From IMG/VR virus record IMGVR_UViG_3300045988_090463, positions 12,472-76,471 of that record: a stretch of DNA of 64,000 nt. One strand, 5' to 3'. The notes beneath the pieces are model-generated. The model was given only the letters and a program-made list of their open reading frames with translations, was not told the DNA's origin and made no database searches. The DNA comes from a virus. Positions 4,643 through 50,011 of this stretch are shown here, piece by piece (position 1 is the first letter of the stretch; every line of letters begins with the position of its first letter). The position numbers and the translations under genes are program-made.

Positions 4643-4846
4643 TTAATTGAATTTATTAGGCACAAAAATAAAATCCATAGGGATTCCAGAAAGTTCACTC
4701 ATTTTTCTAAGCTGAGATAATGTAGGCTCGGTCTTTCCTTTCTCCCAGTTAACCACTGTAGCATTAGAAATACCGAATATTTCAGCCCATTCTTTCTGGT
4801 TGTACCCAGCGTTAACCCGAACTGCTTCTAATGAAATTTTTGGCAT
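4643..4846 (-). CDS. Cro-like XRE-family HTH regulator
   Basis: 67 aa. HTH segment QKEWAEIFGISNATVVNWEKGK. Divergent from the cI-like gene. Confidence 0.8.
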   Translation of the reverse strand: MPKISLEAVRVNAGYNQKEWAEIFGISNATVVNWEKGKTEPTLSQLRKMSELSGIPMDFIFVPNKFN

Positions 4847-4877
4847 TTGCTCATCTCCTTTCTTAACTTCTGGGCTT

Positions 4878-4906
4878 ATTATAATTCATTCTAATTGAAT
4901 TGTCAA
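4878..4906 (-). promoter_or_regulatory. consensus sigma-A promoter for the cro-like/early operon
   Basis: Minus strand reads TTGACA-17 nt-TATAAT. The spacer contains the operator half-site TAATTGAAT. Confidence 0.7.
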
Positions 4907-4911
4907 CACGG

Positions 4912-4932
4912 AAATTCAAAATAATTGAATTT
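4912..4932. promoter_or_regulatory. operator palindrome AAATTCAA-N5-TTGAATTT
   Basis: Perfect 8+8 inverted repeat between the divergent promoters. Related ATTGAATT half-sites sit at 4893-4900, 4936-4943 and 4645-4652. Confidence 0.6.
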
Positions 4933-4936
4933 ACTA

Positions 4937-4965
4937 TTGAATTTAATTTGATTGTGGTGTAAAAT
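4937..4965 (+). promoter_or_regulatory. promoter for the cI-like repressor
   Basis: TTGAAT-17 nt-TAAAAT upstream of AAGGAGG-ATG 4993. The -35 overlaps an operator half-site. Confidence 0.5.
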
Positions 4966-4992
4966 ACTAAGTGTAAGGAGGATAAAATAATA

Positions 4993-5361
4993 ATGACAGA
5001 TGAGGAACAAAAGAGGATATTTTCAAACAACCTTAATAGGTATATTTTGAAAAGCGGGAAGCAACAAAAAGAAGTTGCCGAAGCCATCGGTGCAAACACC
5101 TCTACATTTAATATGTGGTGTAAAGGTAATTCTATGCCGGGCGCCGGAAAGATTAGGGCTTTGGCAGATTATTTCCGTATAGGGATGTCAGACTTAACAG
5201 ATTTGAAAGAGAAGCAAGATCCTGACATTGAATTCGGAGATGTAATTACAAAAATCGAGCAGTCAGACCCTCGTTTCAAAAGAATTATTCTTGAATACGA
5301 TAATCTGCCGCCCGACAAAAAAGATTTGCTATGTGATTTTTTTGAAAAATTCGTTTTTTAA
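4993..5361 (+). CDS. CI-like XRE-family repressor
   Basis: 122 aa. HTH segment KQQKEVAEAIGANTSTFNMWCKG. Divergent from the cro-like gene. Confidence 0.75.
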   Translation: MTDEEQKRIFSNNLNRYILKSGKQQKEVAEAIGANTSTFNMWCKGNSMPGAGKIRALADYFRIGMSDLTDLKEKQDPDIEFGDVITKIEQSDPRFKRIILEYDNLPPDKKDLLCDFFEKFVF

Positions 5362-5483
5362 GATGTAAGGGTGGGAATTATTTTCCTGCCCTTTCTTCGC
5401 TATATACTCTTTTTACGCATCCATAAATGAATTTTATCATTGATTCATTGTGTATCTTCTGTACCATCTCAATAATCTCTTTC

Positions 5484-5909
5484 TTATAATCCATAAATAA
5501 CCCTCCCAATCGAAACTTTACTACAGTATATGTCTGGGCAATGGGAAATATGATTTGAACATTTATTTTTATCATATTTTCCGTAAGTCCAATGAAACAG
5601 GACACATGGATTAATATTCGCCCTTGCAAACTGCCAGAGATAGACCGGAATATTTGTGATTTCAAATATGACCTTTACTTTCACAAATATAAAGTTCGTT
5701 TTTACCGGATTTTCTGTGATTTCTACAATATCGTTCGTTCTTAGAATCTCTTTTATGCTCTGGCTTAAAGTTGAATGCTTGCACATATCATCTGCCAAGC
5801 GGATGAAGCTTTTACGTAAATAATCTTGATTGCACATCGGCAAGTGAATGATGTAGCTTGCAAAGAAGATTACTCCTGCTGTGATCAGCAATCTCTCAAT
5901 CTTCCTCAT
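5484..5909 (-). CDS. hypothetical membrane-anchored protein (moron next to the repressor)
   Basis: 141 aa with an N-terminal TM segment LLITAGVIFFASYIIHL. Isolated minus-strand gene convergent with the cI-like gene. Confidence 0.4.
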   Translation of the reverse strand: MRKIERLLITAGVIFFASYIIHLPMCNQDYLRKSFIRLADDMCKHSTLSQSIKEILRTNDIVEITENPVKTNFIFVKVKVIFEITNIPVYLWQFARANINPCVLFHWTYGKYDKNKCSNHISHCPDIYCSKVSIGRVIYGL

Positions 5910-6094
5910 AATATATACCTCTTTAGTCTATAATTTATGTACTTAGTTATACCACTTTTTGTGCAAATAAACGGGCAAAACGATAAAACTGCATTTTTAA
6001 TGGATAAAAATATGAAAAATATTTCGGTTTTGACTATGCTATTGTCGATTCTTGCGGTATAATATATGCAAATTTTACCAAGGAGGAATGCACC

Positions 6095-6613
6095 ATGAGA
6101 AGAAAACTTATAGTTGCAATGCTGTCAGGAATTTTATGCGCTTGCCCCATAGAAGTCTATGCAGACGCTGAAATGACTCAAGAAGAAACAGACATGAATT
6201 CTTTATCAGAGGAAGAATACAAGAAAAAATGTACCGAAATGTGGTATGAAGATATTACTTTCTCAAAGAAAAGTCTGGAAGGTCAGTTTGTCAAAATAGA
6301 TCTTTACGTTGAAGGCACTGCAACAATAGACCCTTATGATTTAATGATCTCCGACAAGACTGAAAAGTATAATCTTAGCAGTAATTGCAGTCTTGTTGGC
6401 ATTTATTCAAAAGATACCGACAGCTACGGAAGCGGCAATGACGTGGGTATTCTATACTCCAATGATTATGATTTCAAAAATACAGACTATGTTCCAGGGA
6501 CTTACTTGACACTTTATGGGGAAATTATTGATTATGGTATCGACTATTGGAGCGGTCACAATTCAGCGTGGTTTATGCCAAAATATATCGAAAACGTGAG
6601 GGATGTTAAATGA
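6095..6613 (+). CDS. secreted protein / putative lipoprotein
   Basis: Signal peptide MRRKLIVAMLSGILCAC. SD AAGGAGG. 172 aa. Confidence 0.55.
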   Translation: MRRKLIVAMLSGILCACPIEVYADAEMTQEETDMNSLSEEEYKKKCTEMWYEDITFSKKSLEGQFVKIDLYVEGTATIDPYDLMISDKTEKYNLSSNCSLVGIYSKDTDSYGSGNDVGILYSNDYDFKNTDYVPGTYLTLYGEIIDYGIDYWSGHNSAWFMPKYIENVRDVK

Positions 6614-6759
6614 GGAAAAGAAAGAAAATAGATAAAGTGACTCAAAAGATAAAATGCCCTGCTCTTACTTGTCGTAGTGCTAATGTTCAGATCGTTAGTA
6701 AAGGATTGTTCTCCACAAAATACCAATGTAAAAGTTGCGGTCGTATTTTCAAAGGATAA
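6610..6759 (+). CDS. small zinc-ribbon protein (49 aa)
   Basis: ATGA-coupled to the upstream gene. Cys pairs CPALTC ... CKSC. Followed by a terminator. Confidence 0.4.
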   Translation: MRKRKKIDKVTQKIKCPALTCRSANVQIVSKGLFSTKYQCKSCGRIFKG

Positions 6760-6767
6760 ACAGCAAC

Positions 6768-6798
6768 GAGCCGAGGATTTTACTCCCCGGCTCTTTTT
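6768..6798 (+). terminator. rho-independent terminator
   Basis: GAGCCGAGG...CCCCGGCTC stem followed by TTTTT. Confidence 0.6.
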
Positions 6799-7007
6799 AT
6801 GGCAAAACCTGCATTCACGATCACATCTCCTCCCCAGAGTAATCTGGCAGGCTGTACCAACGTATTAAGATGTCGATTTTTTTCGAACTTCTGCTGAACT
6901 ATTTACACATTTCCGTTTCAGTGCTACTATATTACCATAATTAATTGATTAGATGAGGATAATCTGATGAAAGTTGAAGCGTAGGCGATAAACGGAAGGT
7001 GATTACT

Positions 7008-7706
7008 ATGAAAATTGCTATTTGTGACGATTGTGAACTACAGGTTGAGTATTTTAAGCATCGGATTGAACCGTTTTTGAAGCAAAACGGTGACCGGAAT
7101 TATACGATAGACGGTTATTTCAGTGGGGAACCCTTGATAGATGATGTTAAGGACGGAAAATGGTTTGATATGATTGTCTTGGATGTAATACTTAAAAACG
7201 AAAATGGCGTGGATATTGCCAAAGAACTCCGAGAGTGTGGATATAAGGGCAAAATTGCTTTCTGGACAGCTCACAAGGATTTTGTTTTTGATGCGTTGGA
7301 TGTTGAATTTACGCATTATATCATCAAGGGAAATGAACACGGAAGAATGTTTTCTATGATTGACAATACCTTGAGTGATATGAAACACAAGATGCTCACA
7401 ATCAGACACAGAGATTGCATTATAAGGATTCCATTGAACAAAATCGAGTACCTCGAAGCACGGGATAAGCAAGTTTTTGTTCATTGCACGAACGGGATTA
7501 TGCACAGTATGTATGCAACTTTAAAGTCGGTTGAGTCTTACCTTGATAAACGGTTTTTGCGTTGCCATAAGTCATTTGTTGTAAACATGGATTATGTGCA
7601 AAAGCTGGATTCTGATTTTACGATGTTTTCCGGGGATAAAGTGTTGATTCGTAAGAACGGATATGCGGATATTAAAAATCAATATTGGGAATACATTATT
7701 AAGTGA
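7008..7706 (+). CDS. orphan LytTR-family response regulator (REC + LytTR, AgrA/LytR-like)
   Basis: MKIAICDDCE receiver start and the MIVLDVIL acidic pocket. C-terminal LytTR segment is IPLNKIEYLEARDKQVFVHC...FLRCHKSFVVNMDYV. No kinase gene is adjacent. Confidence 0.85.
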   Translation: MKIAICDDCELQVEYFKHRIEPFLKQNGDRNYTIDGYFSGEPLIDDVKDGKWFDMIVLDVILKNENGVDIAKELRECGYKGKIAFWTAHKDFVFDALDVEFTHYIIKGNEHGRMFSMIDNTLSDMKHKMLTIRHRDCIIRIPLNKIEYLEARDKQVFVHCTNGIMHSMYATLKSVESYLDKRFLRCHKSFVVNMDYVQKLDSDFTMFSGDKVLIRKNGYADIKNQYWEYIIK

Positions 7707-7710
7707 AGCA

Positions 7711-7754
7711 AAAGAGATGGTCTGTCAAGGAAGAAACAGACCATCTCTTTTTTT
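7711..7754. terminator. 15-bp stem terminator between the convergent LytTR and endolysin genes
   Basis: AAAGAGATGGTCTGT / ACAGACCATCTCTTT followed by a T-run. Confidence 0.75.
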
Positions 7755-7815
7755 GAGTCCATGCTTAAACTCTGGGGAGGAGTTGAATTATGGTATATTT
7801 ATTATATCACACTTG

Positions 7816-9483
7816 TTACACTTTGCAAATATCTTTTGCAGCCACAAATCCGTAGTACTTGCCTGCAATGCGGACATAGTGCCATGAAACACCGTTTGTT
7901 GCTTTCTGAGTGAAATTCATCACGTCAACAAGGTTGCCTCTCACAAGCTTAGGCCATTTCTTAATAGACGGATAGTTGCCACCGGCCCACGTGCGTACAA
8001 CCGTAGATGCCGCAGATACTTTTCCGACAAAGAGACGCTGCGTCTTGTTCTGCTTATTGGTGATTGTAGTCGGTTTGCTTTTAGCTCTGTCAACTTGCAG
8101 ATACTTAGTTGCCGCCCATCCAATGCCGATTCCAGCAACTTTAATTTTCGTCCACATACCGGATTTCTCGCCGTTAATTTCTACACGATTTCCCTTGTTG
8201 ATCTGTCCGAGAACATATCCGTTCGGTGTCTCGCGGATGTACAGGTCGTCAACCGTGGATGTGGCTGTGCCGGTTGCTTTCCATGTTTCTACAACAGGTT
8301 TCTCTTCTCCCCATGCAATCCAGATATAGCCGTCGATTACCGGATCACTGCGAAGATAGCGTTTATTTCGGCAGGATCCGCCGTTTGCAATGACTCCTGC
8401 TGCACTTGAAGTGTTTCCTTCGTTGGTGTAGATGTACGTATTGCTATAAGAGCGGACAGATCCGATGTGAGAGCCATCACGGAAGATAACAAGTGCTCCA
8501 TCTTTTGGCGTGCTGTGCCATGTACCATTTTTCTTCGCCCAGTTGGTGATTGACACACAGTTGTAAAATCCACCGCCCATGATCTGTAATGCTTTTGTAA
8601 TACCTAAGACTTTCGCCAACTTCCAGAACTGATATACCGCGCACCATGGCTGCCCCTGACATCCCGGCTGCCCCCAAGAATTTACATCACGGGCAAATTT
8701 GGTGTAGTTATTGTATCCGGCATTTTTCTGGAAATCGTCAAGATAAGCGTTTGTGCGTTTTTCCAGATACGGTTTATTGCCGCCATTGTTTGCATAATAA
8801 TCACCGAGTTCTGTGAATTTTTGTAATTTTGTTTTCGCCACTGTCATTGCCTCCTTTTTTGCATATTTTCGAATCATTTCGATGACTTTCTTTTGCCTTG
8901 CCGTATAGTCACCAACCTGATTCGGTCTCGGGTCTGCTGGATCTGTACACAATGCTGCATAAATGGTTTCTGAAGTATAAGGCTTTTTGGTCTTACTCAG
9001 GATCCTCTGTAATGCAGATGCGCCGCCCTGATGAATAATGTTGATGCATTCCATCATGGCATCGTCCGGCATGGTTCCGTATTTCTTCGTGATACTTTCA
9101 GAATATTCGGCAATCTGTTCTTCCATCAGCTCATCCTGACACTTGATACCGAGATTGGAACTGATGATAGAAATGATACATTTCGCTTTTGCGGATGACG
9201 GGGAAATCGCATAGGTAGACCAGTTCTTTTTCAACAGGTCAGATTCAAGCCCCTGAGTGTCCATTTTTTTGAATAGTGCCGGATTTCCTCTCTGTATTTT
9301 CTGCAAGAGTCGTTTGGCTTCACCTGCATACCACTGACCAGCTCCGATAGTAATTGCTTTTTCGTTCGGAGTGTTTGCACCGGCACCAATGAACGCATTG
9401 TAACGTTGTTTTCCATATACCTGTCCGCCGGTTTCGACCGCATATAAGATTTTCCTAAGTACTGCGATATTTTCTTTTAGCAT
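7816..9483 (-). CDS. multidomain endolysin (N-terminal glycosidase-like domain, CHAP-type peptidase, two SH3-like domains)
   Basis: 555 aa. CHAP signature: GQPWCAVYQFW ... GSHIGSV ... NEGNTS. Two C-terminal SH3-like repeats. Last gene of the late region. Confidence 0.8.
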   Translation of the reverse strand: MLKENIAVLRKILYAVETGGQVYGKQRYNAFIGAGANTPNEKAITIGAGQWYAGEAKRLLQKIQRGNPALFKKMDTQGLESDLLKKNWSTYAISPSSAKAKCIISIISSNLGIKCQDELMEEQIAEYSESITKKYGTMPDDAMMECINIIHQGGASALQRILSKTKKPYTSETIYAALCTDPADPRPNQVGDYTARQKKVIEMIRKYAKKEAMTVAKTKLQKFTELGDYYANNGGNKPYLEKRTNAYLDDFQKNAGYNNYTKFARDVNSWGQPGCQGQPWCAVYQFWKLAKVLGITKALQIMGGGFYNCVSITNWAKKNGTWHSTPKDGALVIFRDGSHIGSVRSYSNTYIYTNEGNTSSAAGVIANGGSCRNKRYLRSDPVIDGYIWIAWGEEKPVVETWKATGTATSTVDDLYIRETPNGYVLGQINKGNRVEINGEKSGMWTKIKVAGIGIGWAATKYLQVDRAKSKPTTITNKQNKTQRLFVGKVSAASTVVRTWAGGNYPSIKKWPKLVRGNLVDVMNFTQKATNGVSWHYVRIAGKYYGFVAAKDICKV

Positions 9484-9556
9484 TCTTTTGACCTCTCTTT
9501 CTATTTCAGCTCACTACCTCACACAGAGGTAGACAGCTGTTTCTGTACGTGCCAGT

Positions 9557-10003
9557 TTAAGAAACTTTCGTGAACTGTAAAATATCAAATGTACCAGCGC
9601 CAGAATGACTTTCACTCCAGCAACCAAACCATGCATACAACTTGTTTCCATTAACCTCATATTTGGTGCAGATAAGCCAGCCAGTGCTTCGGCAGATGGG
9701 GATACATATTGCGTCATCACTGACTTTGTTGAATGTGGCCGTTTTTTCACTTGTAATCGAACCAGCGGGCACATCAGCAACTGATATGGTCACAGTATCA
9801 ACCCTCGCCAGTACATATTTCCCTGTCAAATTCGTGTTTAGCAAATTAATTCCCAGCTTCTCTTTCAGCCATGTAATCATATTCGCAACTGTAAGTTTTT
9901 TCAGTGTATTTCCACTAAACGTTCCGACCGGTATCAAATCGGTGTCTGCTAATTCTTCCACACTTGCCAAATTGTTTAATGCATCGGTCTTTAATGATTC
10001 CAT
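9557..10003 (-). CDS. hypothetical protein at the tail-fibre/lysis junction
   Basis: 148-aa ORF with no TM segments, so not a holin. Confidence 0.35.
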   Translation of the reverse strand: MESLKTDALNNLASVEELADTDLIPVGTFSGNTLKKLTVANMITWLKEKLGINLLNTNLTGKYVLARVDTVTISVADVPAGSITSEKTATFNKVSDDAICIPICRSTGWLICTKYEVNGNKLYAWFGCWSESHSGAGTFDILQFTKVS

Positions 10004-14305: not shown

Positions 14306-14938
14306 TTAATCCAATAACGTAGTATCAATAATCTGGAAGTTTGCCCTGTGAATATAAAGGGCTTTCCCGTCGATCATAAGTTTTGTCATTTTAGGTAATT
14401 TCTTCGGAATCTTCCAATACACCTCGTCACCAGAATATGCTGTGATAGGTTGTCCGAGTTGCGATTTAATAACTACCACTCGGGATTTTCCAAAATAATT
14501 TTTATATTGGTTTACGATTCCGGCAATATATGTATTTTCATCAATCTTTCCGGTGGATTGACTGTAAATATCTGTCTGTTCAAAATCTACATCCGGTTCC
14601 AATCCGTCTTGCTCGAATATACAGGTGTCTCCGCAGCTCTGAATTTCTTTTCCGTCAATGTTGATGGTAATTACAGACGACATTTCATATCCAGTAATCA
14701 CAGAACCGTCACTGTCGTATGATGTTGTTTTGACCGGATTTCCTTTTACGTTGATTTTGTCCCCGATTGTAGTCATAACCTTTTCACCATAGTTGTCGTA
14801 TGTATGGATGGTATATCCATTTCCAGCAAGATCGCCTTTGATATCATTGAGCGTATCGTCCAACAGAGCACATCCTGTAGCCCCCGTAACGAGGAATAAA
14901 CATAAAATTGCAAGTAGCACATTTTTGAATTTTTTCAT
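14306..14938 (-). CDS. lipoprotein
   Basis: MKKFKNVLLAILCLFLVTGATGC carries a lipobox. Confidence 0.6.
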   Translation of the reverse strand: MKKFKNVLLAILCLFLVTGATGCALLDDTLNDIKGDLAGNGYTIHTYDNYGEKVMTTIGDKINVKGNPVKTTSYDSDGSVITGYEMSSVITINIDGKEIQSCGDTCIFEQDGLEPDVDFEQTDIYSQSTGKIDENTYIAGIVNQYKNYFGKSRVVVIKSQLGQPITAYSGDEVYWKIPKKLPKMTKLMIDGKALYIHRANFQIIDTTLLD

Positions 14939-14939
14939 T

Positions 14940-15269
14940 TTACCACTTCTCCTTTAACTGATTAATTGGTGTTCCAGCTACTCCGGCACTTTCTCCGCTG
15001 TCAGTAGCTTTGAAATACGCACCTTTGATTTGTGGATACATAAATTCGAACATCAAATAATTCGCAGCATCGCAAAGATACTCCGTGTTACCAGTTTTCA
15101 GATATTTTTTGACACACATATCATGAGATTCTATGGCATTTACCAATTTCTCGCCGAAATTATCTTTTGCAGTGCCGTATTTGTAAAAACTGACTTCTAC
15201 TCGATTTTGTCTCAGTTCGTCAAATCTGTCTGAATACTCTGCTGGCATTTCTTTTCCAAGTCTACTCAT
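14940..15269 (-). CDS. hypothetical protein (109 aa)
   Basis: Compact ORF in the cassette. No motif I can name. Confidence 0.45.
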   Translation of the reverse strand: MSRLGKEMPAEYSDRFDELRQNRVEVSFYKYGTAKDNFGEKLVNAIESHDMCVKKYLKTGNTEYLCDAANYLMFEFMYPQIKGAYFKATDSGESAGVAGTPINQLKEKW

Positions 15270-15381
15270 TTCTTTCTCACTTTCTAATTAATTACTGTAT
15301 CGTTTTCCATCTAAAATCCATTTGAAGCATCTATGTGAGGAAATAATCGCCCTCTGTATTTAAAATAGATTTTAGGCTGTT

Positions 15382-15669
15382 TTATTCAATGAATATCTGT
15401 CCTTCATATTTTTCAAATCTGTACTTCTGTGAAATATCTGGATATTTTTCTTTATCAACCAAACTGTAAAACATTTTTTGTGGTCTGGCATATAGTTTTC
15501 TTTCTCCATACAAAGCACGGTAAATTATCAGCGGTTCGTCTGTCTCTGTATGCTTTGCTTCGCCGACAATCTTATACAGGTAATCATTGCTCCGCAAATC
15601 ACTGACGGTTTCTCTCTTGAAATGTTTTACTATGTCCCCCGGTTCAAACAATGGTCTGTCTATTGGCAT
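15382..15669 (-). CDS. DUF1653-like protein
   Basis: The pattern [10 protein letters not shown]...[36 protein letters not shown] matches my recollection of DUF1653. Confidence 0.55.
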
Positions 15670-15673
15670 ATTT

Positions 15674-16702
15674 TCATTCCTCCCGTTTCTGTTTCACGCG
15701 GTTATACAAAATGTTCTGTGTCCTTTCTGTGAAGAACAGCCAGATACGATAATCGCAACCCATACCGTTATTCTTCCCAATGTCAGAGCCGAAATATTCG
15801 TCCATCATGTCCAGATAATACCCCGGCTCATCGTCCTCTTCGACTATTCCGTCTTTCACCATATCCAAGTCAGCATTTCGAATCATACTCAGGAACTGGT
15901 CAAGGTCATTTGCGTAGACTATCGGATGTCGTTCTCCTCGATACTGTTTGAACTTTTCAAAAAACTGTTTGACCAATGCCATAGTCAGGCAGATGTCGTG
16001 GTCTTCCAAAATATCTTCTTTGTCCCCGTACAGAGAATTAAATCCATTGTACAGGATTGTCGGTAGTTCTTCGTCTTTGTAATCGACAGAGCGATTCTTT
16101 TTCGCATGTGCGTACCGTTCCTGCTTCTGCTCTTTCGTTCTAGGTGGTATATTATTAATATTTATATTATTATTAAGAGCAGAAGTCTTTACTCCTTTAC
16201 CAGACGATGGTAAAGTCTTTTCCTCTGCACTTGATAAAGTACAGTCTTTATCTGTATCAGTAATTGATTTATCAGTAGTTGATATATCAGTTCTTTTATT
16301 ATGGGGGTGATGTTCTACCTCTGGGACTTCTAGGGCTAGGGTTTCTATACCTTGAAAAAAAGCCTCTTGATTATTGTTATTGTCAGATACCTCATGCGGA
16401 GTTTCGTAAATGTTATAAATGTACTCAAACTTAGATCGTCCCTCTTCTTTGCAAGGCTTTTTCTTATCCACAATAAGATACCCCGTTGCTTTTAACTCTT
16501 TTATGGTTGATTTCACTGCCGTTTCATTTTCCTTTAAAATTGCACATAACCCGGGAATAGAATAGTTCCAAGAATCCGGTAATGAAAACATTACAGATAA
16601 AAGCCCTTTTGCTTTTAAACTCAAATCCTTATCTCTAAGATGATGATTACTCATCAGCGTGTAATTCTTTGTTTTGTGTACTCTAAATACTGCCATAATC
16701 AC
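15674..16702 (-). CDS. winged-HTH protein of mobile-element initiator/regulator type
   Basis: N-terminus [43 protein letters not shown]. Asn-rich linker. 342 aa. Confidence 0.5.
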
Positions 16703-17421
16703 ACTGCCTCCCTTTCTGAATTATTAAGTGGAATTTCACTGAAATCTCGAAGTATATCTATTCCACTATGAAACAGTTCGGAAGAATCTTCTGTTTTGCA
16801 ATCTTCATTAAGAACCGGATTATTTTCAGCGATAAGTAATATTTCCAAAATGTTTGTATCTGCAATATTGTTCACTGTATAAAACATTACTCGGGTAATT
16901 TTTGCTGAGTTTTTTCGTTCCCTATAAGATGACGTGATTCTTTGCGATAAATCAATTGATTTTCCAATATATAAAATGGTATTGTCTTCGCCAATAAAAG
17001 CGTATATGCCATGAACTTTATACAAATTATCACACAAAAACAGCATTGATTCTATCGGAAAATCTTTACTACACTCAACGACATCTTCATTGTTCTTTTC
17101 TATAATGGATTCTCTCCATAATATCCGTGCATATGCGTCTTTATTTTTTGATATAAAGTCAGATACATCACCATATCGACTATTCTCATCAAATCTTTTG
17201 TATCCATAACAAGCCCGTGAAATTGCATTAGCATAATCAATTTGACGAACACTCGCTTTTTTCCAATTGCATTTTTTATATTCCTCTTCGTGTTCTCTGA
17301 TAAATTCACTGACATCATAATAACTATCGCTTTCACTAAAAGCTGCTTCAATATTCAGCGCATCAGCAATTGCTCTGGCAAATTTTAATTGTCTTGGGGA
17401 AACTAATTTTCGACCGTTCAT
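16699..17421 (-). CDS. GIY-YIG nuclease with a duplicated N-terminal domain
   Basis: GIYAFIGEDNTILYIGKS...R...E motifs. Start MNGRKL follows GGAGG. N-terminal repeat is SPRQLKFARAIADA / SVRQIDYANAISRA. Confidence 0.7.
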   Translation of the reverse strand: MNGRKLVSPRQLKFARAIADALNIEAAFSESDSYYDVSEFIREHEEEYKKCNWKKASVRQIDYANAISRACYGYKRFDENSRYGDVSDFISKNKDAYARILWRESIIEKNNEDVVECSKDFPIESMLFLCDNLYKVHGIYAFIGEDNTILYIGKSIDLSQRITSSYRERKNSAKITRVMFYTVNNIADTNILEILLIAENNPVLNEDCKTEDSSELFHSGIDILRDFSEIPLNNSEREAV

Positions 17422-17479
17422 ATAGATAACCTCCATGTCGTTAATGTGTGACTGCCTTGTAGCCACAGATCCATGATTT

Positions 17480-17541
17480 ATAAAAACAACAGGCAGGTGC
17501 ATCATGGAATTGCACTTGTCCCCCGTCGGGTTAGCCTGTTG
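17480..17541 (-). promoter_or_regulatory. second leader hairpin plus U-tract
   Basis: CAACAGGC...GCCTGTTG followed by TTTTTAT, about 60 nt before the GIY-YIG start. Confidence 0.4.
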
Positions 17542-17644: not shown

Positions 17645-17673
17645 AGTATATCAAATTCTACCGCAAAAATCAA
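17645..17673 (-). promoter_or_regulatory. near-consensus promoter of the cassette
   Basis: Minus sense TTGATT-17 nt-(TGa)TATACT. The -35 overlaps the tape-measure stop codon. Confidence 0.55.
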
Positions 17674-20600
17674 TATGCCGGGGACGGATTCATACGGTAA
17701 TCTGTATTATTTTGAGCTTTTGTGACAATTCGCGCCAGTTCACGTTCGTTCACCTTGATGCTGTTCATGATGTACTCTGGTGAAGAACCACCAAAGCCCC
17801 CATTGTTCATCAAAGCAGTAACTACTCCACGCTCGACAGCTTCCATGATCTCATCTTTCGTAAGCCCCATGTTGCCGTCATATCCAGACATGATGCTGTC
17901 GGCAATGGATTTCATGGCTTTACGATTTTCCAAAGGAAGAACGGCTTCCTGTCCTGCTTCGCCTACACCAATGACAGATGCATTTTTGAACAAACCACCT
18001 TTTGCATACCAGTTTACACCAGAATCCCATCTGTAGGACATACTATTGCCACTTGCGGATGCACTAGAATTCATGTAGATATGTGGTGTTTTGATATGGA
18101 CAGACTGCAATCCATTTGATAATTCTTGCGCTGCATTTCGACCGACATTGTACAGTCCGTTCAAACTTTTCGATATATTATTGGCAAGTCGAGTGAAATA
18201 TTTTGACATAGCTGGAACTTTGCTGCTGAGAACAGAATCCAGAGTATCAATAATTTGCCCCTTTCCGGTGATACGCTCTGCTGCTTTTTCCCATTTCTTT
18301 GTCATAGTATTATACTGTGATGAAAAATGGGATTCTACAGTTTTCTGCATTTCTCCCAGTTTCAAGTTGGCTGCTTGCTTCATTGAATCAAGGTTTTTGG
18401 AAACCTCTTTTGCAGAACTTCCCCATTGCGTTACAGTTGCCGTAGTGACTCCCTGCGAAGATTCAGTGGCTTTTGAATGAATTGCCTCATAATCGCTCAT
18501 GGCAGTACTCTTCATATGACCAGTAGCTTTTGTTACCGCACCTGCCGCATCATTGAAATCTCTGGTGGTATTCCATCTAATTTCTGATGTTTGCTTAGAC
18601 ACAGATTCTTTTGCGGTCTGAACTGCATCGGGGAATGTTTCTGCAAAAATCTTTGCAACAGATTCCGTATTCAATCCCATTTCTTTTGCGGTTGCCATGA
18701 TGTTTTCATAAGCTCCCTGAGCTGTGCCACTTGCATTAGGCATATCGTATAATGCGGTATTAAGTTGAGTCTGTTGGTCAGAATTTAATCCCAACTGAGT
18801 AGTTAACTTCGGAAGGACTTCTGCCAACTCATCAACAGAGTATTTGCTAAGATTGAGACTACCTGCCATATTCGTTGATTTATCACCTAATGTTTTGATA
18901 GATTCTGATAGAATATCAAACATATCATCCGTGATAAGTCCTTGCTGATACAAAGAAGAAAATGCCTGTTCTGCCTGATCTGATGTCACTCCCATTTCTC
19001 CGAGTTTGTCAATTATCTTCTGAGTTGCCGCAGATTGCTCTTCTGCTGTCATTCCTTCTTTTTCGAGAGATTCTTTCAAGTTCCAAATTTCCGTTGCAGA
19101 ACCAGATATTATGTCGCCACGTTGTTGTAATGTCTGAATGAAATTATCCATGGTATTGCCAAATGTGGTTCCTACTCCATTGCCGCCTTGCATACTTTCT
19201 ACCATACCGGCAATTTTAGAAGTTGCATAAACCGCCGCTGCACCTACACCAACAATTAATCCCGCTGTACCTACCAATGGTCCCAACTCTTTTGCCAGTG
19301 AAGCGAATTTCCCACCAGATGTTCCTGCCGCTTCGCCCAGTCCGTCAAGAACTTGTGTTGCTTCGGATGTTCCTTGTCCAAGAATACTGGATAATTTTTC
19401 GGCAATAATATCAGCGCTTTCTTTTGCCATGATTTTATCACCGATATGACCGATAAGTTTTCCGACAAGTGTTCCGATTCCTGTGATATCTGCGATTTTT
19501 ACAGCAACAAAAGCTGTTGTAAGACCGGCTGTGATCTTTCCGGACAATCCGCTTTCCCACAGTCCAGACATTGCTTCGCCAAATCCGCTTATAAGCAATT
19601 TGGCGGCTGTTGCAAGTAATTTTCCCCATGGAAGTTGCCCGATAAAATCGCCAATGCCTTCTCCAAGCTTTCTGAATGTATTAGGAGTTAATGCATCTGT
19701 CAGGGCATCGCATAAATGGCTAAGGAAGTCTCCGAGAGCCTTTCCATTCTCTTTCCAGTGCATATCGGATATAAATTTGGAAATCCCATCGCCAAGATTT
19801 TTAGTGAAGTCATCCCAATTGAATGTTGCTGTAAAGCTTGCAAGTGCTGTAAATGCGCCGTTTATTCCAGTTGTTAATGCACTAGCAATTTCTGTAAAAT
19901 TAATTTTCTCAAATACGCCATTAAGGGCATTTCCGATATTAATTCCGATTTCGTCATATTTAAGATTTGAAACAAAACCATAGAAAATGTGCCAGCTCTT
20001 CATAAAGTTATTACCAATCAAATTTCCAAGATTAGTCCAGTCAACTTCACGAGAAAGCCCCATGATGCCTTCTGCGAATTTCTTGCCAAGGTTTTTAAAA
20101 TTCGTTCCCTCAAGCAACTGATTGGCTGTATTAACTATTGTATTAATGCCGGCTCCTACTGTACGTCCCATCAAATCCCAGTTGATATTATCAACAAGGC
20201 TGTTGAAAGTCTGGGTGAACGCACTGGTAAATTTAGTGATGTAAGGGCCTACGTTATTCCAGTTAATGAAATCATAAAGCTTTTGCATCCCCCAGTTGAT
20301 GCCGTCAGCCATGATTTTTCCAAGACCTTTCCAGTCTTTTCTTTTAAAGGCATTTACAATGGCATCTGCCATTTCATTTGCCCTGTTGGACATCTTTTTA
20401 AAAGCTTCGTCCCATGCTTTTTGATATGCAGATAAAGCATCATCTAATGCAGCATCAAGCGCTGGAAGATGTGATGCGCCACCGCCAGAGCCAGAAGATG
20501 GATTACTTGTACTACCAGAATCAGAATTGTCATTAAGCTGATTCAGTTGGTCAAACGCAAGGACTGACAATGTTTTTTCGAGTTTTTTTGCGCTGGTATT

Positions 20601-22424
20601 GGCATTGTCAATCGCACCACTGGCATTATCCATATTATCTGCAATATCTCCAGTATCTACAGAAATACCACCAGTAGATGATACAAAGTTTGACAGTTTG
20701 ATTCCAAGCAATTTTGCAATATAAGCAAACATTCTTTGTAATGCGATTACGATTGCATTGATATACGGAAGAACTGTTTGCAGTATAGGAATGAATAAGG
20801 AACCTATTGTTCTACCAAGGGATGCAAAGTTAGCTTGAAGCATACGAATCTGATTTGCCGGTTGATTGATCGTGTTTGATAAATCAGCCCATGCATACTT
20901 AGAGTTGTTCAGCAAGATAATCGTTCTTAGAATCGTTTTATCTGCCTGAGACAAATTCGATATGCTGGTATTAATTCCAAGATTATATAGTTCCTGTTGC
21001 ATGTTGGCATTACGGATATTGATGCCGTACTTGTCCATTGCACGGCTCATACCAGTCAAGCCAGATGCCATGTCCTGCCATACATCCTCGAAGTCCATGT
21101 TTCGTACAGAAGCAAGGTCAGCACCAATCATAGTGAGTGCATTAGACAATTTTAAGGCAGTCTCTGATGTATCGCCCATAGATGATGCCATCTGTGCAAA
21201 TGTTGCCTGATACTGCATTGTCTTTTCTGGGTCAAGTCCAAGACTGGCGGTATTGGTTCTAGTCAGTTCGCCAGTATCTGAAATTTCGAATCCTGTCAGT
21301 TTCTGTGAAAGCTGTTTTGCTCTTTCTTGGAATGAATTTGCATACGCTTCAGCAGATTTTATGCCACTTTTCTTCCATTCGTCAGTGTCGATCCCTTCTG
21401 CCACCTGATTGAATGCAGAGTTGAAGTAGTTCAGCGTCTCTACATAGTTCATTGCGGATTCTACTGGCGATGTCAGAACATCTAATGCTCTTTTTGCGAG
21501 GAAACCTTTGGCGTAAAGAGCACTCAACTTATTTGTTACCGAACTCAGAGGATTTGACAATCTTCTTATTTTTTCGCCAGCTTCAGAAGATGCATTTCCA
21601 ATACCTGCGATTGCAGATACGGCTTTTCCGCCTAAAGAAATAGCTTTTGAAGCAAATTTTTGAAAAGCATTTGTCAGCCCATGGATTACAGTACTTGCTT
21701 TTGAACCTAACGAAGAAAGCGTGTTGAATGAATTCGAAACGCTATTTGTGGCACGCCCTACTTTACTTCCAGACGATGCTAATACTGCAAGTGCTTCTGT
21801 CATTCTTATTGTGCTCGAACTGATATCTGGTGCGCTTTTCATTGCGTCAAAAAACTTCAAAACCTCTTGTGCAAGAGTTGATAATTGACTTGCAGTCTTT
21901 CCAGTTTTATCTCCTGCACTAGCTAATTTTCCAAGAGAAGTAATAAAAGCATTGGTGGATGCTGATACCTCGCTCATAGAGCTTAATTTAGTGGCTGCAT
22001 TATTTAAACCTGTCGCAAGATTCGGAAGTTCCTTTGATACATTGCCGATATACTGTCCTGTACCGGCAAGTTTAGCTATAGCGGTTGTGAACCGGCTAAC
22101 GCTCGGAGAAACATCTGGAATAGCATCAAGTTTCTGCATCTCGGTAAGAATTTCGCCTAATTTCCCTGTATCAAACTGACTAAAATCAGATTTTCCAAGA
22201 CGATTGATAGCGTTTATAGCCGCATTCAATCCATTTGCTTTAAAATTCACACTACCTAAACTTTTTAAAGAATTGGAAAAATTATTTAACCGACTTATGT
22301 CAAGATTTCCAAGGGCAGTGTTTAATGTATCTAATTTTTTTACAAGGTTATTAATAGACCGTACCGCCTGAGTTGTGCTACTGCCTATTTGTATATTGAG
22401 GGTATCTATGGTATTATCGGCCAT
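17670..22424 (-). CDS. tape measure protein
   Basis: 1584 aa, helical and repeat-rich with Gly/Ala-rich TM-like segments. Lies downstream of the chaperone pair. Confidence 0.9.
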   Translation of the reverse strand: MADNTIDTLNIQIGSSTTQAVRSINNLVKKLDTLNTALGNLDISRLNNFSNSLKSLGSVNFKANGLNAAINAINRLGKSDFSQFDTGKLGEILTEMQKLDAIPDVSPSVSRFTTAIAKLAGTGQYIGNVSKELPNLATGLNNAATKLSSMSEVSASTNAFITSLGKLASAGDKTGKTASQLSTLAQEVLKFFDAMKSAPDISSSTIRMTEALAVLASSGSKVGRATNSVSNSFNTLSSLGSKASTVIHGLTNAFQKFASKAISLGGKAVSAIAGIGNASSEAGEKIRRLSNPLSSVTNKLSALYAKGFLAKRALDVLTSPVESAMNYVETLNYFNSAFNQVAEGIDTDEWKKSGIKSAEAYANSFQERAKQLSQKLTGFEISDTGELTRTNTASLGLDPEKTMQYQATFAQMASSMGDTSETALKLSNALTMIGADLASVRNMDFEDVWQDMASGLTGMSRAMDKYGINIRNANMQQELYNLGINTSISNLSQADKTILRTIILLNNSKYAWADLSNTINQPANQIRMLQANFASLGRTIGSLFIPILQTVLPYINAIVIALQRMFAYIAKLLGIKLSNFVSSTGGISVDTGDIADNMDNASGAIDNANTSAKKLEKTLSVLAFDQLNQLNDNSDSGSTSNPSSGSGGGASHLPALDAALDDALSAYQKAWDEAFKKMSNRANEMADAIVNAFKRKDWKGLGKIMADGINWGMQKLYDFINWNNVGPYITKFTSAFTQTFNSLVDNINWDLMGRTVGAGINTIVNTANQLLEGTNFKNLGKKFAEGIMGLSREVDWTNLGNLIGNNFMKSWHIFYGFVSNLKYDEIGINIGNALNGVFEKINFTEIASALTTGINGAFTALASFTATFNWDDFTKNLGDGISKFISDMHWKENGKALGDFLSHLCDALTDALTPNTFRKLGEGIGDFIGQLPWGKLLATAAKLLISGFGEAMSGLWESGLSGKITAGLTTAFVAVKIADITGIGTLVGKLIGHIGDKIMAKESADIIAEKLSSILGQGTSEATQVLDGLGEAAGTSGGKFASLAKELGPLVGTAGLIVGVGAAAVYATSKIAGMVESMQGGNGVGTTFGNTMDNFIQTLQQRGDIISGSATEIWNLKESLEKEGMTAEEQSAATQKIIDKLGEMGVTSDQAEQAFSSLYQQGLITDDMFDILSESIKTLGDKSTNMAGSLNLSKYSVDELAEVLPKLTTQLGLNSDQQTQLNTALYDMPNASGTAQGAYENIMATAKEMGLNTESVAKIFAETFPDAVQTAKESVSKQTSEIRWNTTRDFNDAAGAVTKATGHMKSTAMSDYEAIHSKATESSQGVTTATVTQWGSSAKEVSKNLDSMKQAANLKLGEMQKTVESHFSSQYNTMTKKWEKAAERITGKGQIIDTLDSVLSSKVPAMSKYFTRLANNISKSLNGLYNVGRNAAQELSNGLQSVHIKTPHIYMNSSASASGNSMSYRWDSGVNWYAKGGLFKNASVIGVGEAGQEAVLPLENRKAMKSIADSIMSGYDGNMGLTKDEIMEAVERGVVTALMNNGGFGGSSPEYIMNSIKVNERELARIVTKAQNNTDYRMNPSPAY

Positions 22425-32907: not shown

Positions 32908-33945
32908 TTATTCCCCCGCTTTGGTACCGATTACGATACCGCCGTTAGCTTTTGGTGCAACAGGAACGAACATGCCGGATGCTTTTGTCCATACTGCAAC
33001 TGGATCCTGTGTAGCCCACATGGAAAGTGTTACGAAAGAACGATTTTCTTCCTGAATGAACTGTCTGTATTCAAGTTCCTCTGGTGTAACACCCCAGAGT
33101 CCGGTACCGAAAGAACCATTTGCTTCGGATTCGTACAGGGTAAATACATCTTCCTTGAAGTATCTGCCGGTTTTCAGCGTTCCATCTGCTTTTCTGTATC
33201 TGAATTTTTCATCACAGCGATCAATAGTAAAACCATATTCCTGCATGATGAGATTTACAAGTTCCTGCTTTGTCAGGAGTCGTTTGTTTGCTGCTCCCAG
33301 AACCGCTGTCTGCATAGCAGTGTTATTTCTCATGTAGTTAATCATCTTGAGGGATGTAAGTGCTTTGTTTACAACAAAACCGTTGTCCTCTGCGACTGCT
33401 ACCATCTTCTGAATGTCGCCCATGATGTCCGCATCTGGTTTAGACCAGTCCGTAAGAGCGACCTTTGCACCAGTCGGTACGCCGTAATCAATATTCAGAT
33501 CTACATTGTTCTCTTTGACTTTTACGGCACCTGTAGAAAGGAACTGTCCTTTCATAACATTCGCTCTGGCAACAACACCTTCAAAAAGGTTAGCTGCATC
33601 ATCAAATACAAAGTTTTTCAGTGCTTCATTATCCGGCACACCGTTTTCAATTGCCTGCTGTAATCTTTCGGACTGATTGATTTTTCTCTTAATAAAGAGT
33701 TTTTCAGTCAGAACTTTTTCGAAGCCCGGTCTTGTTCCGATTTCTGCTTCAGTATCAAGCGCATGAACGAATGCCACTTCTGGCAGTCTCTGTCCAGCCA
33801 TAAGTCTGTAGTATTCAGCTTTCAGGTACTGAGTTTTAACATCTGGAAAAATGGTATCAAGGATACCAGGTCTTTTAACACTGAAATCCTGAGAGAAGTT
33901 AAGTCTTTCTTCCTGTGTAATTGATTCTAATACATTAAATGGCAT
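32908..33945 (-). CDS. major capsid protein (lambda gpE-type)
   Basis: 345 aa. Follows a gpD-like gene and the scaffold. Confidence 0.8.
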   Translation of the reverse strand: MPFNVLESITQEERLNFSQDFSVKRPGILDTIFPDVKTQYLKAEYYRLMAGQRLPEVAFVHALDTEAEIGTRPGFEKVLTEKLFIKRKINQSERLQQAIENGVPDNEALKNFVFDDAANLFEGVVARANVMKGQFLSTGAVKVKENNVDLNIDYGVPTGAKVALTDWSKPDADIMGDIQKMVAVAEDNGFVVNKALTSLKMINYMRNNTAMQTAVLGAANKRLLTKQELVNLIMQEYGFTIDRCDEKFRYRKADGTLKTGRYFKEDVFTLYESEANGSFGTGLWGVTPEELEYRQFIQEENRSFVTLSMWATQDPVAVWTKASGMFVPVAPKANGGIVIGTKAGE

Positions 33946-35128: not shown

Positions 35129-36616
35129 CTATTCTTCACCAGTGGAAGAAATTGTTGCTGATTGATTTTGAATTGATTTCTGACTAAAATCTTTAATCAA
35201 TTCTTGTGCTTTCTTCATTTCTGCGTCTGGGTTTGCCAGTTCGGGATAAACAGTTCCAAGATATGGTAAGCTCATTTCATATACCTTTTGCGGATCGCTG
35301 AATAATCCACAAGTAATCAATGCAATAAGCGGGTGAATTTTATTCTTGAACAGATAATCAAGTGCCTGTGCTTTAACAAGCATGTTATCTGTTGGGTTTC
35401 TGGTGATTTTGACATCAAAATCTCTGGTAGAAATCTTGACATCATTGGAGGTTTTGCGAATGATGTTGAGAATAATTCTGACAGAAGCTTTTTCGGCTTC
35501 TTTTGTGAATGCTTCAACAAGTTTGGCATCTCGCTCTGCAAAATCCCATCCATTACGTAAATATACAGCATTACCAGTATCACCACCGGTGTTGCTCTGG
35601 CGGTTTGGCATTGCTTCTACAATCAGCATATTATTGTAAATGTCGTCTTTAGCAACTTGGCTCTCCGACTGGTTTAATTCCGCAGTCATCAAGTCAACAT
35701 CTGACTGAACACCGTTTCCAGCATCTTTTACAGATATTGCTCCTAGCTTGACCATTTTCAAAAATTCATTCTCGTCAACTTCACAGTTTTTGAATTTCAT
35801 AAATGCTTGAACAAACTGTTCAACACCGTTTAATCTATCCGACTGATACTTGTTGATCGCATCAAATGCTGTAATTGCAATTTCGACATCAGATAGCCGG
35901 TCATGGTTGTTTGGATACTCGATAATTGGGATTCCGCCAAAGCCATTAATGCCGCTGACGGTTACTTGTCCGTTCTTTATCTTGAAATATTGATTTGAAG
36001 AATAGCAAAGATAATATTGCTGATTCTCTTCATCTTTCAATATTTGAACAGATAGCATTGCTTTTCCTGTGTTTCTGGAATAAACAATATAAACATCTCC
36101 CGGATACGGAATAAAAATTCTAAATGGTGGTAAATCACGGTCTTTTGTCCAATCGTCTTCTCGTAGAATTGCTTTGTATGCAGTTCCTACGGCACTCTGG
36201 TATATTCCAAGCTGAATATTTCGGGCATCCGCATTTGCTTCGTCCAGATAATCATTCAGCAGGTCGACCTGCTCATTTATCTTTTTATCTGCTTTTTTCT
36301 TTTTGCAGACATATTGAATAGGTTCTCCATATATTTGTCCTGCCTTAAACTTGACAACTTCCAGAGCGTGATTTTCGACAACTCTGTTATTTACTTCCGG
36401 TCTCACAAGCTTTTCCCGATATAAGATTGGTTGGTCGCCTTTGTAGTACCGATAAAGATAATTAATCATCATTCTGTTTCGATTATGTGTGCCAATCGTA
36501 TCAGATAGAACTTGAACAACATTTTCGGTAGTAATTTGAGCTACGCCAGTGTAGGCAGTTTTTCTGCCAAAATCGCCTTGGCATAGGTCAACAAAATTGC
36601 TTTTGTTTCTTCCCAC
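35129..36616 (-). CDS. portal protein
   Basis: 495 aa. GTG start 8 nt after AGGAGG. Lies between the terL region and the scaffold. Confidence 0.8.
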   Translation of the reverse strand: MGRNKSNFVDLCQGDFGRKTAYTGVAQITTENVVQVLSDTIGTHNRNRMMINYLYRYYKGDQPILYREKLVRPEVNNRVVENHALEVVKFKAGQIYGEPIQYVCKKKKADKKINEQVDLLNDYLDEANADARNIQLGIYQSAVGTAYKAILREDDWTKDRDLPPFRIFIPYPGDVYIVYSRNTGKAMLSVQILKDEENQQYYLCYSSNQYFKIKNGQVTVSGINGFGGIPIIEYPNNHDRLSDVEIAITAFDAINKYQSDRLNGVEQFVQAFMKFKNCEVDENEFLKMVKLGAISVKDAGNGVQSDVDLMTAELNQSESQVAKDDIYNNMLIVEAMPNRQSNTGGDTGNAVYLRNGWDFAERDAKLVEAFTKEAEKASVRIILNIIRKTSNDVKISTRDFDVKITRNPTDNMLVKAQALDYLFKNKIHPLIALITCGLFSDPQKVYEMSLPYLGTVYPELANPDAEMKKAQELIKDFSQKSIQNQSATISSTGEE

Positions 36617-44100: not shown

Positions 44101-44102
44101 AA

Positions 44103-44185: not shown

Positions 44186-44263
44186 ACTTAACTAACCAAA
44201 TCTGATTTTATTGTATCGTCAAAAAATCAAAAAAAACGGTGGGAACCTTATTCGCAAGAGCTA

Positions 44264-49508: not shown

Positions 49509-49551
49509 AAAATGCGTTAAAAATATATTCCGTTTTCGTGTCTATTAACAG

Positions 49552-50005: not shown

Positions 50006-50011
50006 TGTTAT

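Follow-up and report, generated by a model that had tools for sequence, protein, structure and literature searches.

A kinase-less LytTR response regulator and its candidate repeat-controlled promoters in the lysogeny module of a family of gut phages

The DNA considered here (the window) is a stretch of 64,000 nucleotides, positions 12,472 to 76,471 of the IMG/VR virus record IMGVR_UViG_3300045988_090463, and is almost wholly the genome of a temperate, siphophage-like phage whose genes lie mostly on the minus strand. Beside its repressor gene it encodes an orphan response regulator (RR) of 232 amino acids, in which a receiver (REC) domain is joined to a LytTR DNA-binding domain (7008-7706, plus strand; ATG start, with an in-frame GTG at 6999). 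What is new here is a phage-specific clade of response regulators with a fixed position and with two matching promoters that appear to be under the control of direct repeats. Judged by comparison across genomes, the clade is confined to phages, fixed in place and kinase-less, and the prophage is probably wired to read a phosphorylation signal of its host.

An earlier note on this DNA, made from the letters alone, had described a complete REC-plus-LytTR regulator, and domains, model and active site all bear this out. Pfam finds both LytTR (PF04397, 1.2e-17, residues 137-222) and Response_reg (PF00072, 4e-10, residues 3-118), and the sequence matches in the PDB are to the LytTR domains 3D6W and 3BS1, the latter from AgrA, and also to receiver domains. 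An AlphaFold model built with 16 sequences (predicted local distance difference test, pLDDT, 88.5) has full-length ComE (4CBV) as its best match, at E 1.4e-14, and its DNA-binding part superposes on the AgrA LytTR domain with a template-modelling (TM) score of 0.83 and a root-mean-square deviation (rmsd) of 1.5-2.0. The earlier note had named a missing phospho-acceptor pocket as grounds for giving up its proposal; in alignments with CheY and with AgrA the pocket is intact, residues D7, D8, D59, T87 and K107 falling on D12, D13, D57, T87 and K109 of CheY. The same five residues are kept in 32 of the 33 distinct phage RRs, down to 50% identity. The exception, a 59% identical regulator in another phage locus (L010, 9749-10447; such L numbers denote the loci compared), carries D8S and a change of the phospho-acceptor itself, D59E, together with degenerate repeats, and may be a phosphorylation-independent variant. 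The protein belongs to phrog_8810 (9e-36), a family labelled 'unknown function'.

The RR lies on the plus strand between the cI-like repressor (4993-5361, plus) and the convergent endolysin gene that ends the late operon (7816-9483, minus; Pfam CHAP and SH3_3), the place where the earlier note had put it, and the other plus-strand genes in this interval are an ORF of 172 amino acids and one of 49. A terminator of its own had also been proposed, and one is present at 7710-7751: a perfect 16-bp hairpin, its 16-nt arms 100% complementary and followed by a T-run, which is bidirectional and serves the endolysin gene as well. In every phage context the RR is on the cI strand, between cI and a convergent lysin or an integrase, and the genes around it differ from phage to phage. 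The lysin may be of the CHAP/SH3, GH25, Amidase_2 or ELLD type, and the cI proteins are only 13-20% identical to one another. In a prophage of Blautia fusiformis (L013) the order is cI, RR, a protein with a zinc ribbon, a transmembrane segment and an OB fold, a tyrosine integrase and then host DNA. In the related R. gnavus phage phiRg507T2_2 the corresponding slot lacks an RR and is taken up by a beta-sandwich protein, a zinc-finger protein and an integrase; in these two phages a tyrosine integrase stands in or beside the slot that the RR uses here. Since the position of the RR is conserved across phages with differing neighbour genes, a link to lysogeny control or to functions expressed by the lysogen is plausible.

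The family is common and specific to phages. A protein search returns relatives at 93, 86, 75, 59 and 51% identity and then falls to 32% or less. Scores of IMG/VR contigs, 42-84 kb long apart from one of 120 kb, encode an identical or near-identical RR, and a second set of contigs, of about 22-46 kb, encodes one that is 53-55% identical; human-gut viromes show the RR phage family in hundreds of contigs. A search of 185,579 species genomes gives a close RR only in a 5.5-kb contig of a metagenome-assembled genome and in the B. fusiformis prophage (51%), the rest being at 37% or below. The gene is frameshifted in two contigs (L256, 5872-6569; L149, 2821-3503).

The earlier note had also stated that no cognate histidine kinase accompanies the regulator, which holds for the window and for the RR neighbourhoods of its relatives, a scope short of a whole genome. 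Pfam finds no kinase domain in the window's ORFs of at least 190 amino acids. A hidden Markov model (HMM) of AgrC-type kinases, built from nine AgrC-like kinases that adjoin cellular homologues of the RR and with the H, N and G boxes visible, recovers a kinase beside the regulator at about 68 of 78 cellular homologue loci, while nothing in the window or in 91 related phage loci (1.41 Mb) matches it at E<=10. The model does match a kinase in an unrelated gut phage, Ruminococcus phage NatCom_29429 (PV036441, 74 kb; L253, 4998-7078). This phage encodes a complete pair of a LytTR RR and an AgrC-like GHKL kinase (HATPase_c_5, 4e-20), with a tiny ORF after the pair.

Retention of the pocket by all but one of 33 distinct phage RRs, despite the lack of a kinase, argues for selection on phosphorylation, and the simplest reading is that the RR would be phosphorylated by something that the phage does not encode. 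The earlier note had further labelled the protein AgrA/LytR-type and tied it to peptide quorum sensing, a label that we give up. The RR scores 42.6 bits against a cut-off of 400 for the AgrA equivalog NF046049 and 53.8 bits against 375 for the LytR equivalog NF010684; by these models it is an orthologue of neither. No agrB, agrD or agrC gene was found in the window, and the closest cellular relatives (33-37% identity) stand next to Hpt proteins and Cache/PAS hybrid kinases instead of kinases of the AgrC type. Because of these hybrid-kinase and Hpt neighbours, the input to the RR may be a phosphorelay rather than a peptide sensor. Coupling of lysis and lysogeny to cell density, another suggestion of the earlier note, is conjectural.

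Comparison of the loci reveals a direct repeat, GAT(A/G)AA-N15-GATAAA, with a period of 21 bp. Three exact copies are present in the 64 kb, against an expectation of 0.09 (0 of 100 shuffles), and the only two intergenic copies flank a cassette of exchangeable genes, here called cargo, that lies between cI and the RR. Repeat 1 (5982-6008, plus strand; GATAAA-N15-GATAAA) is about -43 to -69 from a leftward promoter, P_L1, and about -62 to -88 from the cargo promoter; repeat 2 (6966-6992, plus; GATGAA-N15-GATAAA) is about -44 to -70 from a second leftward promoter, P_L2, and about +29 to +55 from the promoter of the RR gene, P_RR. Both are found in nearly every related locus with an RR of 75-100% identity, their cores invariant and their 15-nt spacers variable, and in the loci of the viral-contig scan repeat 2 always ends, as here, 16 nt before the RR start codon. 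The third exact copy (16247-16273) is within an ORF of the tail region with no -10 element at the right distance and is treated as chance. A near-match at the start of cI (4981-5007) was rejected for want of an associated -10, the excess of one-mismatch repeats is mostly due to runs of GAT/GAA codons within genes, and no convincing site near the RR came out of a generic search for 9-mers repeated at 19-23 bp spacing; it took the comparison across loci to bring out the two repeats.

The repeats stand at a set distance from a particular kind of promoter. Read on the minus strand, nine of ten sites in five diverged loci have TTTATC-N15-TT(T/C)ATC, then 27-28 nt, then an extended -10 element of the form TGnTAnnn(T/C/A), without a -35; the elements among these loci are TGGTATAAC, TGGTATAAA, TGGTAATAT, TGATAGTAT, TGCTAAAAT and TGATACAAT. 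In the window, the extended -10 of P_L1 is TGGTATAAC (5946-5954, minus; -10 at 5951->5946; putative start near 5939) and that of P_L2 is TGGTAATAT (6929-6937, minus; -10 at 6934->6929). The 27-28 nt between repeat and P_L1 are kept in the window, L254, L011 and L006 though the intervening sequence differs, and in L010 the 27 nt to P_L2 are kept despite an indel of about 20 nt that shifts the plus-strand -10. Measured from the expected place of a -35, the repeats thus lie some 5-8 bp further upstream. In experimentally defined LytTR promoters, two 9-bp repeats with a 12-bp (11-13) spacer are found 4-11 bp upstream of the -35, the hdrRM promoter has an extended -10, and the repeat sequence itself is poorly conserved (PMC6193735); by this analogy the geometry of the phage promoters matches.

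Of the 72 loci with this RR clade, 70 have the repeat together with its -10 element, and the combination is missing from about 3 Mb of other sequence, made up of RR-less loci, cellular loci and loci of the 50-60% clade. In the same place, loci of a second clade of the regulator (51% identity, of the L003 type) have a canonical 9-bp repeat of their own, ATTTCGCCA-12 nt-ATTTTGCCA, 24 nt upstream of a leftward TGCTATAAT, so that across these loci the candidate site varies together with the regulator. Binding of the repeats by cI can be set aside, because identical repeats go with unrelated cI proteins, and no DNA-binding protein other than the RR co-occurs with them. We infer that the RR is the protein that binds the candidate repeats.

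Several points weigh against this reading. The half-site core, TTTATC, is just 6-7 bp long and departs from the classical LytTR consensus. In L001 and L002 the LytTR domain of the RR is near-identical to that of the window, yet the repeats are absent; these two look like recombinants that carry the leader of the other clade. Most members of the 50-55% clade have one clear half-site only, and the start sites of P_L1 and P_L2 are read solely off their -10 elements. The variant pocket of L010, with D8S and D59E, means that phosphorylation is not required in every lineage. Finally, the window covers about 64 kb of a phage genome of about 78-81 kb, and the roughly 15 kb beyond it could still encode a kinase.

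The earlier note had pointed to 4850-5000, 49500-50000 and 50700-51130 as places to look for LytTR sites, and none of these yields a candidate; the candidates are the two repeats just described. The first region holds palindromic operators of the cI/Cro helix-turn-helix (HTH) type: two copies of AATTCAnnnTAATTGAATT at 4883-4931, found by repeat and promoter scans between the divergent Cro-side and cI-side promoters. These operators are the genetic switch, not LytTR sites. The Cro-side promoter is a perfect TTGACA-17-TATAAT (4906->4878), and the Cro-like HTH gene that it faces (4643-4846, minus; Pfam HTH_3, 1.8e-11) is the first of the leftward early operon. The cI-like repressor itself has 122 amino acids, an HTH and a short helical C-terminal tail; Pfam places it in HTH_3/HTH_26 only, NCBIfam in the RstR family (7e-6) and PHROG among transcriptional regulators/repressors, and Pfam finds no S24 self-cleavage domain in it. 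The stretch 49600-49700 was set aside as AT-rich repeats with a 23-bp period, and 50700-51130 as four copies of ATTAAACTATGC in or beside the spacers of near-consensus promoters, an arrangement of the repressor type.

Both of these distal regions have features of their own. At 50711-51122 three near-consensus sigma-70 promoters (TTGAC[AG]-17-TATAAT or TAATAT) have the same spacer, with the four ATTAAACTATGC, and surround an Arc-like gene of the ribbon-helix-helix (RHH) type that encodes 64 amino acids (50750-50944, minus); the arrangement has the look of a distinct set of repressor and operators that belongs to an immI-like or early region. The AT-rich block at 49601-49690 has TATACTATATCT twice at the 23-bp period together with nested inverted repeats, is upstream of an ORF at 48800-49408 (minus) and adjoins a GC-richer stretch, 49800-50100, without a credible ORF. 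The block may represent a pac or ori region or else a gene for an RNA.

Around repeat 2, the RR promoter and a leftward transcription unit are interlocked. P_RR (6902-6930, plus; TTTACA-17-TACTAT preceded by TG, from the promoter scan) is conserved in all clades, and its -10 is overlapped by that of P_L2 by 2 nt. Repeat 2 being at +29 to +55 of P_RR, its occupancy should repress P_RR while activating P_L2. From P_L2 a putative RR-dependent, non-coding RNA of about 155 nt would run leftwards (6768-6922, minus) to a terminator hairpin at 6768-6793, which has a 10-bp stem with 7 GC pairs and a plus-strand T-run and also closes the cargo operon on the plus strand. The sequence of this RNA is conserved in the window, L254, L011, L006 and L010, and its minimum free energy is -51.3 kcal/mol as against -36.9 +/- 4.0 for shuffles (z -3.6); covariation support is weak, and it matches no Rfam family. 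On the same RNA, at about 6794-6838 (minus), a possible micro-ORF of 14 amino acids, MIVNAGFAIKRAGE, follows a GGAGG; it has synonymous differences only in L254, is frameshifted in L011 and has no start codon in L010. Just upstream of the -35 of P_RR there is also an inverted repeat, TCGAA-N4-TTCGA (6872-6887), found nowhere else in the window and retained in L006, L010 and L011.

The operon behind P_L1 has two genes and runs towards cI. The first encodes a small single-pass membrane protein (5484-5909, minus; 141 amino acids, 110-118 in relatives) that has no Pfam or PHROG family and is conserved in L001, L011, L013, L177 and L254. The last encodes a 38-amino-acid protein beginning MDYKKEII (5378-5494, minus) and is convergent with cI, with which the operon shares the hairpin at its end. 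The invariant N-terminus among 26 sequence variants in 94 loci, and 27 small-protein clusters in a library of 1.8 billion proteins, indicate that the 38-residue protein is a genuine family. In hhalign its profile pairs exactly with the 35 C-terminal residues of cI-family proteins (E 3.4e-4, probability 38%), a weak hint at a mimic of the repressor tail in the manner of SinI and SinR. The membrane-protein and MDYKK genes are also found in phages without the RR (L177, L195), behind an ordinary, strong-looking promoter, and because of this the membrane protein is unlikely to be an inhibitor or sensor of the RR like those of LytTR Regulatory Systems (LRS). In L254-L257 an Arc-like RHH gene and an AntA/ORF6C antirepressor gene, with a promoter and operators of their own, are inserted in the leftward operon; in L254 the insert (8710-9800) falls between the P_L1 block and the membrane-protein gene and has a 58-amino-acid Arc-like gene, a TTGACA-17-TAATAT promoter and GCTAGCAAC direct repeats. 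In L001 and L003 the RR gene diverges directly from the leftward operon, and in the window the cargo lies between the two.

The cargo of the window is a gene for a secreted, beta-rich protein of 172 amino acids with an N-terminal signal sequence (6095-6613, plus), followed by a translationally coupled zinc-ribbon mini-protein of 49 amino acids (6610-6759, plus; ATGA overlap, CX4C...CX2C). The earlier note had recognised these genes and their coupling, and both stand; of its alternatives 'secreted' and 'lipoprotein' the former is safer, because cleavage could follow VYA. The 172-residue protein matches nothing in Pfam, NCBIfam or PHROG, its homologues are confined to related phages, and its model (pLDDT 63, low confidence) is beta-rich with weak hints of an OB fold and no significant fold match. 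The two genes co-occur in L006, L098 and L143. They are not a fixed partner of the RR, and instead represent one of several interchangeable cargoes, of which near-identical phages have at least five types behind one promoter and ribosome-site cassette: the 172-residue protein with its zinc ribbon; the same pair plus a Big_2 protein; a protein of 420-442 amino acids with a zinc ribbon, a transmembrane segment and DUF4352; a secreted protein of 275 amino acids, its gene interrupted by an insert of about 2.1 kb in one contig (L150, 5183-7271); and a Big_2 protein of 335 amino acids. All are directed to the envelope, by signal peptide or transmembrane segment, and they are mutually unrelated in sequence.

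Upstream of every cargo type the same series is conserved, from repeat 1 through GGTATAAT to the ribosome site AAGGAGGAA. The -10 of the cargo promoter, TATAAT (6058-6063, plus), has a -35-like TTGACT 22 bp away and is 46-49 nt from repeat 1, one repeat period beyond the distance at P_L1; co-regulation of the cargo with P_L1 through repeat 1 appears possible but not evident. The cassette has an autonomous promoter and terminator within the lysogeny module and a content that varies among relatives, which are features of morons and lysogenic conversion, and its position and turnover fit superinfection-exclusion or surface-modifying morons.

From these arrangements we infer a direction of regulation, a phosphodonor and a physiological output as follows. 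The prophage would make the RR from P_RR, and D59 would be phosphorylated by a phosphodonor of the host, a histidine kinase or an Hpt protein, or by acetyl phosphate. The active RR would bind the two repeats of 21-bp period and turn on P_L1 and P_L2, each of which has an extended -10 and no -35. P_L1 would then yield the small membrane protein and the 38-residue protein whose gene abuts that of the repressor, and P_L2 the structured RNA of about 155 nt, while occupancy of repeat 2 would silence P_RR both through the overlapping -10 elements and as a roadblock at +29 to +55. The cassette of envelope proteins, sharing repeat 1, would probably be co-regulated. The outcome would be a toggle within the lysogeny module that depends on a host signal. 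For this mechanism as a whole, a kinase-less regulator phosphorylated by the host, with two repeat-controlled leftward promoters and self-repression, we lean on balance towards its being right.

A narrower account would leave the decision between lysis and lysogeny aside: the RR would only tune envelope proteins, the cargo and the membrane protein, to the state of the host, proteins that might serve to exclude superinfecting phages or to modify the surface. The slot between cI and an integrase or lysin is a classical position of morons and superinfection-exclusion genes, and phiRg507T2_2 fills it with its beta-sandwich protein, zinc-finger protein and integrase. Having at least five unrelated cargoes behind one cassette is a pattern typical of arms-race genes, and repeat 1 lies between the cargo promoter and P_L1. 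Yet the RR is kept in clades free of cargo (L001, L003), and the canonical geometry is found at the leftward promoters and not at the cargo promoter with its offset of 46-49 nt, so that we regard lysogenic conversion as the sole role of the RR as possible and on the whole doubtful. A little more doubtful is a stronger version of the favoured mechanism, an SOS-independent induction switch in which the phosphorylated RR activates P_L1 and the 38-residue MDYKK protein, mimicking the cI tail, acts as an antirepressor and brings on lysis. A cI without an S24 autocleavage domain would need an antirepressor for induction, the small ORF abuts cI in all clades, and its profile matches the last 35 residues of the cI family; an AntA/ORF6C antirepressor module has been inserted into the same leftward operon in L254-L257, and modules of a transcription factor and a small open reading frame (TF-smORF) with a divergent small antirepressor are documented (PMC10432266). 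Against this, the hhalign probability is low and short helical peptides align easily, and the small ORF is the second gene of an operon, not a free-standing divergent gene. In L177 the membrane-protein and MDYKK genes manage without an RR, and a strong promoter independent of the RR is hard to square with a trigger of lysis unless it is repressed.

The remaining accounts take the RR away from the phage's own promoters, and we give them little weight. An orphan RR with an intact pocket must meet phosphodonors of its host, and Lachnospiraceae genomes have many LytTR systems, so that the protein might act on host promoters or drain host phosphoryl groups as a decoy; two well-placed, cognate-looking sites inside the phage module that strictly co-occur with the RR make this improbable. 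A little less probable again is that another factor binds the repeats, or that they are mere promoter furniture and the RR a functionless passenger. The shortness of the half-site, the missing repeats of L001 and L002 and the frameshifted genes of L256 and L149 would fit such a passenger, whereas the conservation of the RR at 50-100% identity in hundreds of contigs, with the pocket intact in all distinct variants except that of L010, would not; nor would its being the sole DNA-binding protein to co-occur with the repeats while the cI proteins differ, or the matching repeat that the other RR clade has of its own. At the other extreme, one may speculate that the kinase-less RR, in abundant phages of Lachnospiraceae of the human gut, taps a host phosphorelay, switches on a SinI-like mini-antirepressor and an RNAIII-like RNA and switches itself off, the whole being an SOS-independent induction switch coupled to a swappable superinfection-exclusion cassette; taken in its entirety this picture is unlikely, though less so than a decoy or a passenger.

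The mechanism that we favour, that of a host-phosphorylated toggle, resembles several known systems in part. With ComE of S. pneumoniae and AgrA of S. aureus the RR shares the REC-plus-LytTR architecture, the fold and the conserved Asp pocket, as well as candidate direct repeats of 21-bp period just upstream of promoters without a -35, and there is an echo of agr P2/P3 and RNAIII in a promoter that diverges from the RR gene and would drive a transcript for a small RNA or a peptide. It differs from them in that no cognate kinase, peptide or exporter genes accompany it and sequence identity is only 15-22%; its half-site is TTTATC and not the AgrA-type ACAGTTAAG; the repeat in the RR leader predicts negative and not positive autoregulation; and it is encoded by a phage, in the lysogeny module. 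The HdrRM and BrsRM systems, which are LRS (PMC6193735), likewise combine a LytTR regulator and a small membrane protein, and their promoters show an extended -10 together with 9-bp repeats spaced by 12 bp. Their regulators, however, lack a receiver domain and share an operon with the membrane inhibitor, whereas here the receiver domain is complete and the membrane protein is divergent and also found without the RR in L177.

Among phage systems, VqmA(Phi)-Qtip of VP882 and other TF-smORF modules (Silpe et al. 2023, PMC10432266) also have a phage factor that depends on a host signal, beside a divergent gene for a small protein and with a non-cleavable cI, and there too the proposed output is the inactivation of the repressor without proteolysis. 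The layout here, an RR beside a divergent small-ORF operon near a cI without S24, is of this kind. The differences are that the factor is a two-component response regulator, a class that the TF-smORF paper does not mention, that the hosts are Gram-positive gut anaerobes, and that the small ORF is second in a two-gene operon also present in phages without the regulator. By analogy, the case would bring a two-component input, in phages of Gram-positive gut bacteria, within the logic of the VqmA-Qtip and TF-smORF modules. A mirror image is given by phage phiCDHM1, which carries agrB/D/C and no regulator (Hargreaves 2014, PMC4124054), the present phage having the regulator only; both are cases of signalling parts of Firmicutes borne by phages. 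LytTR homologues in phages have been mentioned in passing only (PMC4124054; review PMC11945551), and our literature search found no study of a phage-encoded LytTR response regulator.

Moron and superinfection-exclusion cassettes of the Ltp/Sie2009 type sit between the repressor and the integrase. The cargo cassette is like them in its position in the lysogeny module, its autonomous promoter and terminator and its envelope-located, rapidly exchanged products, and unlike them in its coupling to a regulator of its own that responds to a signal and has cognate-looking sites. No homology of the cassette to Ltp or Sie proteins was found.

The rest of the window completes the picture of a temperate phage. 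An SPP1-type portal (35129-36616), a major capsid protein (32908-33945) and a tape-measure protein, assigned to an ORF of 1584 amino acids from its size and position (17670-22424), represent the structural genes. An ORF of 564 amino acids (37157-38851), with no Pfam match, may be the large terminase by position, and beside it is an SPFH/Band-7 protein (38926-39879). The tail module also has, at 14306-17541, the non-structural genes DUF5052, a replication-initiator-like HTH_36 protein (phrog_4707) and a GIY-YIG nuclease, with an int-alpA RNA motif at 17471-17541 (RF02996, 52 bits), which together point to the insertion of a mobile element. Four tRNA genes (Ser, Tyr, Met, Gln) are clustered at 44102-45287, and the replication and DNA genes include a replisome organiser and a DnaC-like loader (56.5-58.2 kb) as well as a C5 methylase. 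A large serine recombinase is encoded at 54036-55769, far from the cI module.

Most known routes of prophage induction go by way of DNA damage. To our knowledge, the known signal-sensing routes (VqmA-Qtip, LuxR/XRE-smORF and arbitrium) use one-component receptors. A receiver-domain regulator that is kept without a kinase across a phage family implies a direct reading of the phosphorylation state of the host, and this family of temperate phages, common in the human gut, would offer a testable model for the coupling of gut prophage behaviour to host signalling. The model is small enough to be rebuilt with reporters, consisting as it does of a regulator, two short sites, four promoters, a 38-amino-acid protein and a small RNA. 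The conserved promoter and ribosome-site cassette with its exchangeable envelope proteins, in turn, marks a hotspot of conflict between phages and between phage and host, which could be mined for exclusion functions.

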